Assembly (NCBI GenBank): GCA_043775745.1
Contig: JAYVSD010000068.1
Span: forward strand, 1 to 29,130
DNA from: a bacterium
Lineage (GTDB): Bacteria > Patescibacteriota > Minisyncoccia > Phycocordibacterales > UBA5272
Length of the DNA: 29,130 nt
Direction of reading: 5' to 3'
The notes under the pieces were generated by a model that did no database searches, was not told the DNA's origin, and saw nothing but the letters and a program-made list of their open reading frames with translations. The number at the start of each line of letters is the position of its first letter. Within the stretch, counting starts at the first letter, position 1. Positions 1 through 6,300 of this stretch are shown piece after piece. The position numbers and the translations under genes are program-made.

Positions 1-177
1 CATGTACTTCTTGTCATCTTTTTCAAGAGCAAAGCACACACGGCTGATGCCTTTGTGAGTGCATACACCCTCTTGCTTGACGATCGCGTCCTTGAGATCG
101 ACGTAGGGGTCGAAAGCAAAGACGGCGAAGCTTGCCAGTATCAATACCAGCAACAAAGCAAAGCGAAAGTATTTCAT
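1..177 (-). CDS. Secreted or membrane-anchored hypothetical protein, runs off the window edge (not in the ORF track)
   Basis: Read manually: ATG at 177, MKYFRFALLLVLILASFAVFAFDPYVDLKDAIVKQEGVCTHKGISRVCFALEKDDKKYM, open to position 1. Signal-peptide-like N-terminus and GGAG 5 nt upstream (183-186). Confidence 0.7.
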   Translation of the reverse strand, partial: MKYFRFALLLVLILASFAVFAFDPYVDLKDAIVKQEGVCTHKGISRVCFALEKDDKKYM

Positions 178-179
178 GT

Positions 180-398
180 TTACTCCAGTTTGGTTGGTGG
201 ATACTTCGGTTTCAATTCTTGGGTGGCTTCACAGCTTTTTTGGCATGTGCCACCACCTTGCCATGATCCATAATAGCCTTTCATGGTCTTATTACAAACA
301 AGGCACAAGCCGACCACGCTTTCTTTGTAGTCGTCTTGTACTTGTCTAAAGTCCTGCTTGCCTTGCCCTCTGGTCAACGTCTTTGATTGGCTCTTCAT
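180..398 (-). CDS. Small hypothetical protein with CxxC...CxxxC, possibly zinc-binding
   Basis: 72-aa ORF with CLVC and CQKSC. It abuts the next gene (TAA-AC-ATG). Confidence 0.55.
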   Translation of the reverse strand: MKSQSKTLTRGQGKQDFRQVQDDYKESVVGLCLVCNKTMKGYYGSWQGGGTCQKSCEATQELKPKYPPTKLE

Positions 399-546
399 GT
401 GTCACCCTTTCAAAGGTGTATCTTGGTTTACAATGTACATGATAATCACTTCGCATTCCTTTCAGAATGGTGGTAAAATATCCCTTGCAAGGATCTATGC
501 TTTTAACGCAAGACCCACATACCAGAACTGGCATATTTCCTGACAT
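346..546 (-). CDS. Small hypothetical protein with CxxC...HxHC
   Basis: 66-aa ORF preceded by AGGAG (553-557) 6 nt upstream of the ATG. Confidence 0.6.
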   Translation of the reverse strand: MSGNMPVLVCGSCVKSIDPCKGYFTTILKGMRSDYHVHCKPRYTFERVTHEEPIKDVDQRARQAGL

Positions 547-628: not shown

Positions 629-1828
629 TTAAAGTAAAGTATTCATGACTAATATAGACTTGGGTCCAAAGCTCTTACCATTCAATTCTGAAAGGTCTGC
701 TACCTTATAAGCTACCTGCCATGCTAAAACTGCATTGACTGTTATTTTGCCATAATAACCAGTACATTTTACATTCATAGGGAAATACCCAAGTTGTTGT
801 AGTTTTTGTTGTAGCAAGGCAATTTCAGGGCTTGTAGAGCCATATACTAGAGTACTGGAGAATATATGTTTATGTGGCTCTGATTTTCCATAAGTCCATT
901 TAGTGAATGCGGAGGCACCATAGCAATGTTTATCAAAGAATGCTTTGGTGATCGCTCTCTGTCCTGCTTTTAATGGTAGGTCAGATTTTACTTGCCATGT
1001 ACCATAGCTATCTTCAATGATAATATATTCAACACCTTTGTGGGATATAGTATCGATGGCTGTTACGGCGTGCCTTATCGCTTCGCTGTCAGATAGTCCT
1101 GTGGGCACATCTTGACACCATTCATTGTAACTAGCTTTAAATAAAGCCATACACGCTCCAAAAGTATTTATGGCTTCTGCTACTTTATAAAAACTATAAT
1201 CGTTTAAGACAATACTATTTAAAGGTTTGTCATGCACGGCTAAACTAGTATTATATATTGCATTGTCTACCTCTATATCTGACATATGTTCAGAGGGTAC
1301 ATCTTTTTCTAGGTAAGCACCATATTTAGTAGAGAAGTTTAATGCGTTTGTCATAGACATACCCGTGTTTGGTTTATTTGCTCTTGATTGAAATATTGGC
1401 GTTGCGGAGTACACTGTTAGCACTCCATCATTTTTAAAGTCTGCTACTTCTAACATTTTAGCTGTGGTTTGAGCTACACATGTACCGCTATCATCTTGAA
1501 ATCTTTGAGTATAAGATATTGGCTCTCTTTCTTGGAATGACGCACCACTGGATACTATATCCTCAAACTTGGTAAAATCACTAGTATCTCCTATCTCTGT
1601 TATACCTTTATAACTTTTAATAAAGTTTAATATAGAGCTATTATCTTTAGTGGCTACAGTTCTACCATATATGGCTAGCAATGCACCTGCTAAAGTTATT
1701 ATCATGTTGATAACATCAGTTAACTGTTGACTATTAGTCCAGTTTGCATGACCTGTGGCTTGTAACATACCCATTATTAAAGTAACCACAATACCTATAT
1801 ATGTTTTATTTCCATTTAGATTGTTCAT
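629..1828 (-). CDS. Endolysin: N-terminal holin-like 2-TM segment, papain-like cysteine peptidase, C-terminal peptidoglycan-binding domain
   Basis: QDDSGTCVAQ (catalytic Cys), HAVTAID (His) and IEDSYG (NSWG-like) motifs. PG_binding_1-like tail (L.YGS.SPEIALLQQKL...GYYGKITVNAVLAWQ). Two hydrophobic helices in aa ~9-57. Confidence 0.8.
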   Translation of the reverse strand: MNNLNGNKTYIGIVVTLIMGMLQATGHANWTNSQQLTDVINMIITLAGALLAIYGRTVATKDNSSILNFIKSYKGITEIGDTSDFTKFEDIVSSGASFQEREPISYTQRFQDDSGTCVAQTTAKMLEVADFKNDGVLTVYSATPIFQSRANKPNTGMSMTNALNFSTKYGAYLEKDVPSEHMSDIEVDNAIYNTSLAVHDKPLNSIVLNDYSFYKVAEAINTFGACMALFKASYNEWCQDVPTGLSDSEAIRHAVTAIDTISHKGVEYIIIEDSYGTWQVKSDLPLKAGQRAITKAFFDKHCYGASAFTKWTYGKSEPHKHIFSSTLVYGSTSPEIALLQQKLQQLGYFPMNVKCTGYYGKITVNAVLAWQVAYKVADLSELNGKSFGPKSILVMNTLL

Positions 1829-1838
1829 GTTTTTATTA

Positions 1839-2123
1839 TTACCAAAAATGTCTCATTCCGATTAAAGCCCCCCCTGCCACAGCCATGCCTCCTAACCATT
1901 TAATGAACCTCCCCGCATTTTCTGCGGTACTATAAGCTTCTACTACTGGTTGTAGTGTTTTTCTCCATTCAATAGAGTCTTGTACAAACTTTGCATTTTC
2001 TTTATAAAATAACTCAAATTTCTCATCTATTTTACGGATTTTACCATTGACAGTTGCCTCTATGGTATTTTCCGTAGTCTGCTTAATCGTATTTATTATT
2101 TTTTGTAATTCTTTTTCAGTCAT
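1839..2123 (-). CDS. Coiled-coil protein with C-terminal TM helix (holin- or antiholin-like lysis accessory)
   Basis: 94 aa ending in hydrophobic FIKWLGGMAVAGGALIGM; directly upstream of the endolysin. Confidence 0.55.
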   Translation of the reverse strand: MTEKELQKIINTIKQTTENTIEATVNGKIRKIDEKFELFYKENAKFVQDSIEWRKTLQPVVEAYSTAENAGRFIKWLGGMAVAGGALIGMRHFW

Positions 2124-2999: not shown

Positions 3000-3305
3000 T
3001 TAATTAAGTCTAAACCATTTAGTAGAAGTCGCACTGAATGCCCACCTGCCAAAACCGTTGGCGGCGAGCGTCGTTAGTCCTCCCAGGATAGTACCGCCAT
3101 TTAATGTTAAGGCGGTAATTGCCTGTGATGTTGATACGACAACACTTTGCCCGTCATTTACTGACGGCAAAGTAATTGTTAAAGTGGCAAGTAAACCTGC
3201 TGGCTCGAGGAATACAACAAGTTCTGGTCCATCAAAAGCATTCACTGTGACAGTTGTACCTGTCGTTGGAGTTGCATATTGTATTACTGCTTTATTATAT
3301 GACAT
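3000..3305 (-). CDS. Small beta-rich virion or tail-fibre-associated protein
   Basis: Thr/Ala/Gly-rich; TLTITLPS and KWF segments resemble phage fibre C-terminal domains; immediately follows the fibre gene. Confidence 0.55.
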   Translation of the reverse strand: MSYNKAVIQYATPTTGTTVTVNAFDGPELVVFLEPAGLLATLTITLPSVNDGQSVVVSTSQAITALTLNGGTILGGLTTLAANGFGRWAFSATSTKWFRLN

Positions 3306-3306
3306 A

Positions 3307-6300
3307 TTATGATATTGAGATTATTTGATAATTAGTGCCGTCAGACTGTATCATTATTGCCGTATATTGTGTATTGATTACTTTTGTAGCAGCTCCGTCG
3401 ATAAGACCACTTGCAGGGGTTATGGTTACTGCGTTGGCGGTAGAGTCTATTTTTTTAATAATAAACATTTGTCCTGTCATATTTGTTGCCTGTGGGAAAG
3501 TTACCGCAAACCCTGCCGTTGTTGCGTCACAAATTATTGTATGGTCTGTTCCTGCTACGGCGGTATACGCTCCTGATTTTGCCACAATTGCATACTGTAT
3601 ACCACCACCAAACCTTGATAGTCCTGCTTTCACCCAGTGAGCATAATTATTACCTGTGACTGTTGCTGTTGGTGCTGCTTCAATATAGACAGTAGCTGTG
3701 TTTGCGATAGTAGCAACACCCGCAGTGATTGTTGGTGCTCTTATAATCTGACTTGCAAGAAGTGGGTGGGCTCCTGAGGTTGCTGCGGTTATAGTACTTG
3801 CTCCAATGATAAAAGCTGCATAGTTTGCGTTTGCACCCATAACAGTATTAAAAGTACCCAAAACAATAGTTCTAAGTGTAACAGTACTTGCCCCTTCAAC
3901 CAAAAGCTGTGCCGTACCATAACTATTACCAGCTCCAGTGCCGCCAAGAGCCATAAAATTATCCAAAGGATTGTTTGAAATGCTTGTTCTTACTCCTCCT
4001 AAACAAGTTACAAAACCGCTTGCAACATAAATAGCATGAGGGTTTGTAATAGTAACGTTGGTACCTGCCAGTGGAGTATTAGCTATGTATAAAGTTGCCG
4101 CATTTGTATACGTTACCGAAGTATTTGTTGCCGCAATAGTTGGTTGAGCAAAAGTATGTATTCCTGAGACTGCTACTGTGCCTGAAATAGCAGTGCTGGT
4201 ATCAGTAAATGTAGCAGCATCATATCTTATTCCTACACCGTTAGTTGTCCATGCTGCAAAAGAGTCAGCTGTTCTATTTACATGGAATATAGCAAGGGGG
4301 GCAGTAGCCCCAAGAGAGAAAAATCCTGTATTTGATAAAGACATCTTAACAGAAGATGACAAAGATGCTTTAATAAGTAAATTAGAGCCACTACCAATAG
4401 ATCCCTCAGTAGGGTTAATGTTAAAAGCTGTATACCCAGCTGTGCTACTTTGAGTTATTGTTGGGCTTATAGATAAGGCAGATTGTATTCCAGAAGAAGC
4501 AGAAAACTGTAAAAGTGTAGTGTCAATGAAGTTTCCAGCAACTGAAGAGTTGCCATTAAATGAAAAAAATGGGTTAATGTTTTGTATTTTTATAAAATTT
4601 CCTACTTCTATTGCCCCACCTGCTGAAATACCAACACCTAAAATTATAGGTCTTGCAACCCCTGTACCCCCAAACTCTGTACCAATAACTGATTTATTAG
4701 ATGTCCATCTTTTTACAGCTCTTTCATAGTTAGTAACTTGGTCAATAGTATTAAAGTGATTATACCCTGTTGTTGTTGAACCGAGAGTTAATGTTGTTGT
4801 TGGCACTGCCGTATTAAAACCTAGACGTTTATTTGTTATATCCCAGAAATAGTTAGCATTATCTTGTGCAAGTAGTCCAGTAGCCCCGACAAAGAGGACA
4901 GAGCCTGCTGTACCAGACGCTACTGCAGAACCTACGCCGTATGAGGGTGTTTGCCATGTAGCGGTTGTAGAACTTGTAGCAGTCAAAGCCTGACCATTGG
5001 TAGGGGCTGTAGCTGCTGATACATCTACTGTAGTGGTAGCACTTTTAAGAGCATTTGTAATCCCTGACGTAAGACCCGTTGCGGTACCTGTTACGTTTGT
5101 CATTACTCCTGATGTGGGAGTACCCAGAAGAGGTGTTACTAGAGTTGGTGATGTAGCAAATACTGCAGAACCTGTACCTGTCTCGTCAGTAAGAGCGGCA
5201 GATAACTGAGCTGACGTGAATAAACCAAGTGATGTAGCATTTCCCACTGAAGTAACTGCACCTGTTAAATTAGCATTAGTTGCATCGTTACCATTTAACT
5301 TTTGAATAGCTTGTAAAATAGTATCTGTTGCTGACACAGCCCCAGCCCCCGAAACATAACCAGTTAGGGTAGAGCCAATAGCTCTAGCATTAGTAAAAAA
5401 TAAGTTAGTAACTTCTGTTATTTGAGCCGAAGTATAATCTCCTGTAGTTGCTACGACAGCACCTGCTCTACCAAATACAGAAGATACTCCCGTTACCAAT
5501 GCTGTAATGTTACCGTTTATTTTTTGGAAGGCTTGTAAAATGGAATCAGTCGCAGCAACTACTCCTGCACCAGAAACATAACCTGTGAGAACTTTAGCAA
5601 TGACGGGTGCGTTTGTAAGAGTAGTTGCGTTACCGACTGATGTCACATCGCCTGTTAGATTAGCATTAGTTATCACTGTGGCTGCAAATGAACTTGTCCC
5701 CGAACCAGTTACTCCCCCAGTGAGCGTGATTGTCTGGTCTCCAGTGTTAGTGCCTGAGTTAATACCTGTTATATCAGAGGTAAAAGCTAGAGTACCTGAA
5801 GCATCTTTTAATGTATATGTTCTTGCTGCGGTTATTGCATTTGTGAATAAAGCTGTAAACGTATTAGCTACGTTACGAAGCCCAAAAGTTCCATCTAAGA
5901 ATGTTTTTAATCCTGAGTTAGTTTGGACAGAGGCTAAAACCATATCACCACTACCTGCGGGTGTTGACCATGTTCCATCCCCCCTCCAAAATGTAGCTGA
6001 AGAGGCTGATGTACCAGAGTTAAGGTTGCTTACAGGTAGATTACCTGTAACATCATTATCCAGTCTAACAGTAAGTGTGTTATTAGCTCCATTTATAGTC
6101 TTATTTGTTAATGTATCTGTTGTAGCTTTTCCAATTAAAGTATCAGTTGCGGCAGGTATAGTGACAGTCCCCGTTGCTATGGCACTACCTACTACTTTAG
6201 TAGTGCCTGAGGTAGCTCCTGAAAATAATAATGTGCCTGTTGATGTACCCACTTTACCAAATCTAGTACCTGTGGATGTTATACGCATTCTCTCTCTTGC

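Follow-up and report, generated by a model that had tools for sequence, protein, structure and literature searches.

The window analysed here, a stretch of DNA of 29,130 nt, is the entire contig C68 of a 551-kb bin that comprises 107 contigs and is 80% complete. Its minus strand encodes terminase, capsid, and tail proteins. The phage is uncultured and its host is assigned by binning alone. The gene described below closes the late operon and follows the tail fibre genes. It is an open reading frame of 399 amino acids plus a stop codon, begins with ATG, and joins a membrane module of two transmembrane (TM) helices, a C1 peptidase, and a peptidoglycan-binding domain in a single protein. Its parts, together with the gene directly upstream, are as follows.

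629..1828, minus strand: whole gene; two-TM module, then C1 peptidase, then PG_binding_1
1649..1828, minus strand: N-terminal membrane module, aa 1-60, with the signature G-x-K-T-Y-I-G-I ... Y-G-R; un-annotated family
1751..1801, minus strand: helix 1, aa 10-26; weak hydrophobicity, Gly/Ala/Ser/Thr content 35%
1715..1750, minus strand: loop, aa 27-38; charge acidic or neutral in family members, predicted location outside the cell membrane
1664..1714, minus strand: helix 2, aa 39-55 (hydropathy and AF2), followed by the invariant Arg56
1613..1660, minus strand: junction or tether, aa 57-72; pLDDT low, start of unfused homologues at about aa 66-72
1514..1612, minus strand: N-terminal extension of the enzyme, aa 73-105; common to unfused homologues
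884..1513, minus strand: papain-fold (C1A) catalytic domain, aa 106-315; Cys117 at nt 1478-1480, His253 at nt 1070-1072
632..853, minus strand: PG_binding_1 peptidoglycan-binding domain, aa 326-399 (Pfam and AF2)
1839..2123, minus strand: P0064, 94 aa, candidate second membrane component; coiled coil and Gly/Ala-rich C-terminal TM

Kyte-Doolittle peaks lie at aa 10-26 (a weak 1.38) and aa 39-55 (1.82), with nothing similar further along the protein, and both helices are moderately hydrophobic with approximately 35% Gly/Ala/Ser/Thr. An AF2 model derived from 56 homologues (mean pLDDT 86) contains helices at aa 5-24 and 33-60, a low-confidence stretch at aa 61-69, a confident globular domain at approximately aa 105-315, and a second confident domain at aa 326-399. 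A first-pass annotation, made from the sequence alone, had described two N-terminal TM helices that run in frame, with no methionine ahead of the catalytic cysteine, into a papain-like cysteine peptidase and a peptidoglycan-binding domain; each element of that description is borne out here. The catalytic cysteine is Cys117, and no in-frame ATG, GTG, TTG, or CTG occurs between codons 51 and 124. Production of a soluble enzyme from an internal start was considered and rejected, as no start codon occurs in that stretch. The window does contain a -10-like TATATT, separated by 7 nt from an ATT at codon 70, that is not kept at locus L003; L003 has ATG at codon 70 and lacks the -10 element, so the two sequences share no conserved signal for an internal start.

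The catalytic domain can be assigned to peptidase family C1 by its profile, its papain fold, and its Gln-Cys-His-(Asn/Asp) catalytic residues. Pfam Peptidase_C1 matches aa 109-277 with 20.7 bits, right at the cut-off of 20.7. A profile of the enzyme family hits chains of cathepsin K, cathepsin S, and papain, with E-values down to 5.8e-11 (cathepsin K), and Foldseek aligns the model with cathepsins at a probability of 1.00 and a TM-score of about 0.7. Among 56 sequences, Gln111, Cys117, and His253 never vary, and Asp273 is close to invariant (at least 90% conserved). PG_binding_1 (PF01471) matches aa 333-374 with 31.7 bits (cut-off 23, E 1.8e-7), and the PHROG matches of the fusion protein fall on this wall-binding domain only. 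The C1 enzyme probably cuts the peptide part of peptidoglycan.

The hairpin is absent from approximately 55 homologues of the enzyme, each roughly 335 aa long, which begin at about residue 66-72; in some cases their gene comes immediately after that of a Phage_holin_3_3 protein. The catalytic domain of this phage lysin family, with its 55 or so homologues, has a genuine C1A (cathepsin/papain) fold. GenBank phages contain no homologue of the family, and a literature search found no paper on C1-family endolysins. One enzyme homologue of 667 aa (P0005) matches the intein and homing-endonuclease families PF14890, PF14528, PF05203, and PF14623; an intein has apparently been inserted into a phage endolysin. 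Among GenBank phages, there is no homologue of the whole fusion protein or of the window DNA.

Several features of the surrounding DNA were also recorded. Just downstream of the endolysin gene, positions 346-546 (minus strand) encode a 66-aa Cys-rich (CxxC...C) protein, which has a 64-aa counterpart in L003 (3244-3438) and a 62-aa gene in the same place beside the 71% identical allele of the fusion (P0003). It is skipped by gene callers on longer contigs, in which 1.3 kb after the endolysin are left with no called gene. The GC content of window positions 1-500 is 44-47%, compared with about 30-38% in the phage body. The motif (T/C)ACCGACC(A/G)TA(T/G)(A/T)ATA lies 8-10 nt before four ATG starts (7479, 11360, 15090, and 25841), and a Shine-Dalgarno sequence precedes none of 32 genes. 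Together these patterns would fit leaderless late transcripts.

Integrity of the fusion

The fusion protein is identical on three contigs. An allele with 91% identity (P0002) is present on one Logan contig and in one NCBI metagenome-assembled genome (MAG), and an allele with 71% identity (P0003) is present on two ENA contigs. The N-terminal part is in frame in all three alleles (100, 91, and 71% identity), which come from independent assemblies. When species-representative genomes were searched, the sole match was the MAG contig with the 91% allele. Comparison of the window with L003 yields 17 synonymous and 8 non-synonymous differences in aa 1-60, i.e. a dN/dS of 0.096, with values of 0.114 for the junction (aa 61-105) and 0.081 for the remainder of the gene. 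At the level of codon comparison, these ratios show that the fusion is under purifying selection, junction included.

The frameshift or indel that the first-pass annotation advised looking for at the junction is not there: Logan contigs from two runs reproduce positions 400-2400 without indel or substitution. Its proposal of a natural in-frame fusion therefore holds, given that three diverged alleles keep the frame and the hairpin itself has a dN/dS of 0.096. The separate homologues that it suggested searching for were found on both sides of the joint, as unfused enzymes (about 55) and as free modules (at least 278). An assembly or frameshift error joining two genes has a negligible probability and is already refuted; although Logan unitigs break at 1662/1663, precisely the boundary of module and enzyme, the frame is kept in three diverged alleles from independent assemblies, purifying selection spans the junction, and the joint is intact, with no stop, indel, or start codon.

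In the Logan assembly graph of both runs, the break at 1662/1663 (codon 56, the invariant Arg) is accompanied by another at 1937, just before the C-terminal TM of P0064. The 276-nt piece between them encodes the membrane segments of the fusion protein and of P0064, and has a lower depth (7.1/7.0) than its flanks (9.4/9.0 and 8.6/8.1). A minor co-existing strain may have a different or absent 'membrane cassette' at window positions 1662-1937.

The membrane module and its predicted topology

The module belongs to a large family of its own. A profile of aa 1-72 was searched against 1.8 billion representatives, and retrieved free proteins of 56-85 aa that consist of the module alone, in addition to two M15/VanY peptidases and one Amidase_2 amidase that carry it at the C-terminus. 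A word-indexed search yielded further C-terminal fusions, namely to Amidase_2 (two more), to GH24 with PG_binding_1 (573 aa), to GH25, and to C1 with Peptidase_M15_3 (three). Free module proteins number at least 278 with lengths of 54-110 aa, and none of the 278 examined has a Pfam family. The module signature is L-x-G-x-K-T-Y-I-G-I ... Y-G-R, in which G6, T9, Y10, and R56 are invariant. These searches show that the module is a discrete mobile unit of a large phage family that has been fused to at least six kinds of lysin. The N-terminal orientation seen in the window is rare and known in three alleles. A tblastn search of the module against 50,697 GenBank phage records gave zero matches.

This distribution also disposes of the possibility, set out in the first-pass annotation, that aa 1-60 are a cleavable signal peptide. 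They are not, because the same module occurs as a free protein of 54-110 aa and at the C-terminus of lysins; the segment moreover has two helices and free homologues of just 56-66 aa. Another candidate relative, the 65-aa two-TM protein P0066 encoded downstream of the closest unfused homologue, proved unrelated to the module.

Similarity to known holins is below threshold throughout. Holin_SPP1 (PF04688) matches with 14.7-15.5 bits (E 0.02-0.035) against a gathering score of 27 bits; sub-threshold matches to it occur in 5 of 14 module members (best E 0.016), and sub-threshold matches to the holin family phrog_297 in 6 of the 14. That they recur counts in favour of a holin-like protein. An hhalign comparison of the module with SPP1 gp26 was not significant (E 0.17), nor was there a significant match to any proven holin.

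The topology of the module was predicted from charges counted across 14 members in the 10 residues before helix 1, the loop, and the 15 residues after helix 2. Positive and negative charges number 23 and 9 in the N-terminal flank, 4 and 24 in the loop, and 31 and 6 in the C-terminal flank. By the positive-inside rule, positively charged flanks are cytoplasmic, so the family charges predict that both termini are inside and the loop outside. Independent support comes from enzymes bearing the module at their C-terminus: they lack a signal peptide, so these enzymes, and hence the ends of the hairpin, must be cytoplasmic. The earlier suggestion that two TM helices would keep the enzyme on the same side as the N-terminus accords with this prediction. 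The window peptidase is accordingly predicted to stay cytoplasmic on a tether of approximately 16 residues (aa 57-72), given that residues 73-105 belong to the enzyme family itself.

Genomic setting and the second membrane protein

In related phages, the free module is repeatedly encoded beside lysin genes. It directly follows one at four loci (L006, L009, L012, and L020): an Amidase_2 gene in L006, as in L007; a GH19 endolysin gene (phrog_181, 4.8e-58) in L009, as in L010; the gene of a CHAP protein in L012; and in L020 the gene of a 150-aa protein without a family match, presumed to be a peptidase. Elsewhere the spacing is wider. A Peptidase_M15_3 lysin gene in L019, and VanY/M15_4-like genes just under the Pfam cut-off in L018 and L016, lie one or two small genes upstream of the free module, and in L017 some 2 kb containing other genes separate the module from the sole lysin-like gene (CHAP), which is upstream.

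The cassette of L009 is complete and runs in the order tail-anchored protein, GH19 lysin, module, Rz/Rz1-like genes, and integrase. An overlapped Rz/Rz1-like pair directly follows the free module both there (3178-3511) and in L017 (4248-4569), and consists of a gene for a coiled-coil protein with an N-terminal TM and a lipoprotein gene, with the lipoboxes LIAC and LTSC. Because genes with the Rz/Rz1 layout come after it at these two loci, the module occupies the holin slot there. The spanins also imply Gram-negative hosts for those module-bearing phages; in the window, no spanin candidate was seen. At L009 the cassette contains no other multi-TM holin candidate, and the same is true of L006 and the window, while L014 and L019 also have Phage_holin_4_1. 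The reading of aa 1-60 as holin-like in the first-pass annotation is sustained in part: the place of the module in the cassette, after the endolysin and before the spanins, speaks for it, but the Pfam and PHROG holin matches all fall below threshold.

Locus L013 suggests how the N-terminal form could have arisen. An Amidase_2::module gene there shares 29 nt, read in another frame, with the beginning of a gene for a 344-aa homologue of the enzyme (E 8e-35). Such an arrangement would be a ready precursor of the N-terminal fusion, in that a small indel together with loss of the amidase would yield the architecture of the window.

Module loci generally encode a second membrane protein. In the window this is P0064, whose gene lies directly upstream of the fusion gene and is conserved in L003; it is helical over a long N-terminal part and has its Gly/Ala-rich TM at the C-terminus. 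Small proteins with a coiled coil and a C-terminal TM recur in five lineages (the window with L003, L009, L006, L018, and L020), represented outside the first by P0078 (L009), P0079 (L006), and proteins of 113 aa (L018) and 79 aa (L020). The similarity of P0064 to its analogues in L009 and L006 is marginal (E 0.003 and 1.8). In other lineages the companion is a recognised holin (Phage_holin_3_3 at the P0003 locus, Phage_holin_4_1 in L014 and L019) or, in L016, a 3-TM protein. Overall, a companion is present at 10 of the 11 well-resolved loci, and the available part of L013 contains none. No recognised holin was found in the window or in longer contigs of the same phage. The frequency of a second membrane protein makes it more likely that the module is a tether, or one component of a two-part holin, than that it is a holin in its own right, and the co-occurrence of recognised holins in some module phages means that it may be accessory.

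P0064 shares the build of XhlA, a coiled coil with a C-terminal TM, without matching its profile: neither P0064 nor P0065 matches XhlA (PF10779), P0064 has no alignment to SPP1 gp24.1 and no detectable similarity to gp24.1 or XhlA, and the L020 analogue reaches 14.6 bits (E 0.038) against XhlA. A predicted complex of the module with P0064, run without controls, scored 0.00 and speaks neither for nor against their pairing. As a separate observation, the P0003 locus has a 210-aa Vut_1 gene (queuosine-precursor transporter family) that separates the Phage_holin_3_3 gene from the gene of the fused endolysin and overlaps the latter by 8 nt.

Role in lysis and relation to known systems

According to the theory of phage lysis, a soluble or SAR-exported endolysin acts together with a separate holin. 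SAR endolysins, such as P1 Lyz and R of phage 21, have a single TM domain, are exported by Sec, and adopt an N-in/C-out topology. The window protein resembles them in having a weakly hydrophobic N-terminal membrane segment and in being, as predicted, an enzyme tethered to the membrane before lysis. It differs in that it has two helices in place of a single N-terminal signal-anchor, and in that the family charges put its C-terminus inside and not, like a SAR catalytic domain, outside.

The closest architectural parallel is the two-part holin of SPP1 and PBSX. In those phages, two small membrane proteins are encoded on either side of the endolysin or ahead of it, namely gp24.1/XhlA (about 90 aa, C-terminal TM) and gp26/XhlB (about 82 aa, two TMs). 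Each part is harmless alone, while the two together kill and lyse the cell (PMC6316719). As in SPP1 gp24.1-gp25-gp26 and PBSX XhlA-XhlB-XlyA, one cassette combines an endolysin with a C-terminal-TM protein of about 90 aa and a small two-TM protein. The gp26/XhlB-like layout, with a small two-TM protein beside an endolysin and a C-terminal-TM partner, is found in L006, L009, L018, and L020, and in the last three the order of tail-anchored protein, lysin, and two-TM protein is that of SPP1 (PMC6316719). In contrast to SPP1 and PBSX, the two-TM part of the window is translationally fused to the lysin and the lysin is a C1 peptidase; in addition, sequence similarity is under every threshold and some hosts of module phages are, by their spanins, Gram-negative.

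Covalent links between endolysins and membrane domains have precedents. Lysins of the Enc34 ORF39 type have a C-terminal two-helix TM domain (TMD) and are reported to be limited to Chivirus-like phages (PMC8943055). In M4Lys of Salmonella phage BSPM4, lysis requires the two-helix TMD, and E. coli is lysed by the full-length protein on its own, with no need for Sec or a holin (PMC7143992, PMC8943055). The window protein shares with Enc34 ORF39, M4Lys, and Siskin an endolysin linked to a two-helix membrane domain. However, their TMD is C-terminal and confined to one enzyme family (PHA02564), whereas that of the window is N-terminal, is joined to a C1 domain, and shows no BLAST similarity to any phage record; the module is also promiscuous, occurring at one or the other terminus of at least six lysin types, and exists free. 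Natural fusion of a holin to an endolysin is known from six Clostridium sporogenes genomes, in which a TpeE/BhlA-family holin is involved (WP_163247266.1; PMC9527704). Here too the membrane part is N-terminal and each enzyme molecule has its own. The TpeE holin, however, has one short TM and an amphipathic helix, with a proposed C-terminal 'flip' (PMC9527704), whereas the window protein has two helices with both ends predicted inside, and the families are unrelated. Since natural fusions of membrane parts and endolysins are on record (PMC9527704, PMC8943055, PMC7143992), the statement of the first-pass annotation that holins and endolysins are normally separate genes is too strong if read as always.

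We consider it somewhat more probable than not that the gene encodes a phage endolysin, made of a papain-fold peptidase and a wall-binding domain, that is N-terminally joined to the two-helix component of a two-part holin. Late in infection, the fusion protein would build up in the membrane, with the enzyme held at the cytoplasmic face by its tether of about 16 residues. We infer the subsequent steps as follows. P0064 (1839-2123) would serve as the partner, as gp24.1/XhlA does for gp26/XhlB in SPP1 and PBSX, a parallel that is one of architecture alone; the module would form holes, so that the fusion protein and P0064 together breach the membrane; and the enzyme, positioned at the rim of the lesion, would gain access to the wall and bring about lysis. 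Counting against this reading, helix 1 is weakly hydrophobic. The work on Enc34 and M4Lys, in which endolysins with a two-helix TMD lyse E. coli by themselves, makes such a mechanism feasible. Chimeras of lambda S105 with GFP reportedly remain functional holins.

A rather less probable, though serious, alternative is that the hairpin is a tether or regulator only. It would park the endolysin or act as an antiholin-like timer, and another protein would breach the membrane, whether P0064 or, in relatives, Phage_holin_3_3 or Phage_holin_4_1. The recognised holins of the P0003 locus, L014, and L019, the 3-TM protein of L016, and the second membrane protein at 10 of 11 well-resolved loci all speak for such a role. 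Many C-terminal fusions also keep a methionine just ahead of the module, which hints at two products with different roles. On the other hand, the complete L009 cassette offers no other multi-TM candidate, nor do L006 and the window, to breach the membrane, and M4Lys-type lysins need their TMD and no holin for lysis of E. coli (PMC7143992).

We regard SAR-like export as distinctly unlikely. The hairpin would then be N-out/C-out, or helix 2 would act as a signal-anchor, and the Sec-secreted enzyme would be inactive outside until depolarisation releases it. The moderate hydrophobicity of both helices and their content of approximately 35% Gly/Ala/Ser/Thr are reminiscent of SAR domains, and release of this kind was considered by the authors of the Enc34 study (PMC8943055). 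Nevertheless, the positive-inside rule points the opposite way over 14 members, there are two helices and not one, and the module is also C-terminal on lysins without a signal peptide, for whose export there is no known route.

Least probable of the functional readings, and very much so, is a membrane-anchored peptidase of phage or host with a role in wall remodelling or another process, its place among tail genes being incidental. C1 peptidases are not an established endolysin class, the PHROG matches are confined to the wall-binding domain, and GenBank phages have no homologue. Yet the gene is the last of a late operon, after the tail fibre genes; unfused homologues directly follow a Phage_holin_3_3 gene; the L013 homologue lies beside an amidase lysin; and the protein carries PG_binding_1.

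Four aspects of the system are new. The module defines a large un-annotated family that is absent by BLAST from the 50,697 GenBank phage records. It is promiscuous, combining with at least six classes of lysin and at either end of the protein. The N-terminal two-helix form is new as well. A true C1A papain domain, acting as a lysin, is added to the catalytic domains of endolysins. The TMD-bearing endolysins and the one holin-endolysin fusion known so far were thought to be clade-restricted, with an unsolved mechanism, and a 2018 survey of endolysins from uncultured phages does not mention TMD fusions. The size of the free family (at least 278 members) and the range of fused lysins (at least six classes) show that joining a lysin covalently to a membrane component is a recurrent evolutionary solution.

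The fusion poses a mechanistic question, since a folded 38-kDa domain would have to reach the wall from a tether of about 16 residues; the natural free, N-fused, and C-fused variants provide material for testing how the enzyme exits. It is conceivable, although on balance doubtful, that the hairpin family represents a lysis strategy that is widespread yet unrecognised and has no soluble endolysin at any stage: each hole-forming subunit would carry an enzyme at either terminus (at least six catalytic types), and a small tail-anchored trigger protein would complete the device. If this is true, the module would be a tractable and promiscuous model for how TMD endolysins of the Enc34 and M4Lys types cross the membrane. 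The module could also serve as a portable self-delivery tag for lysins.
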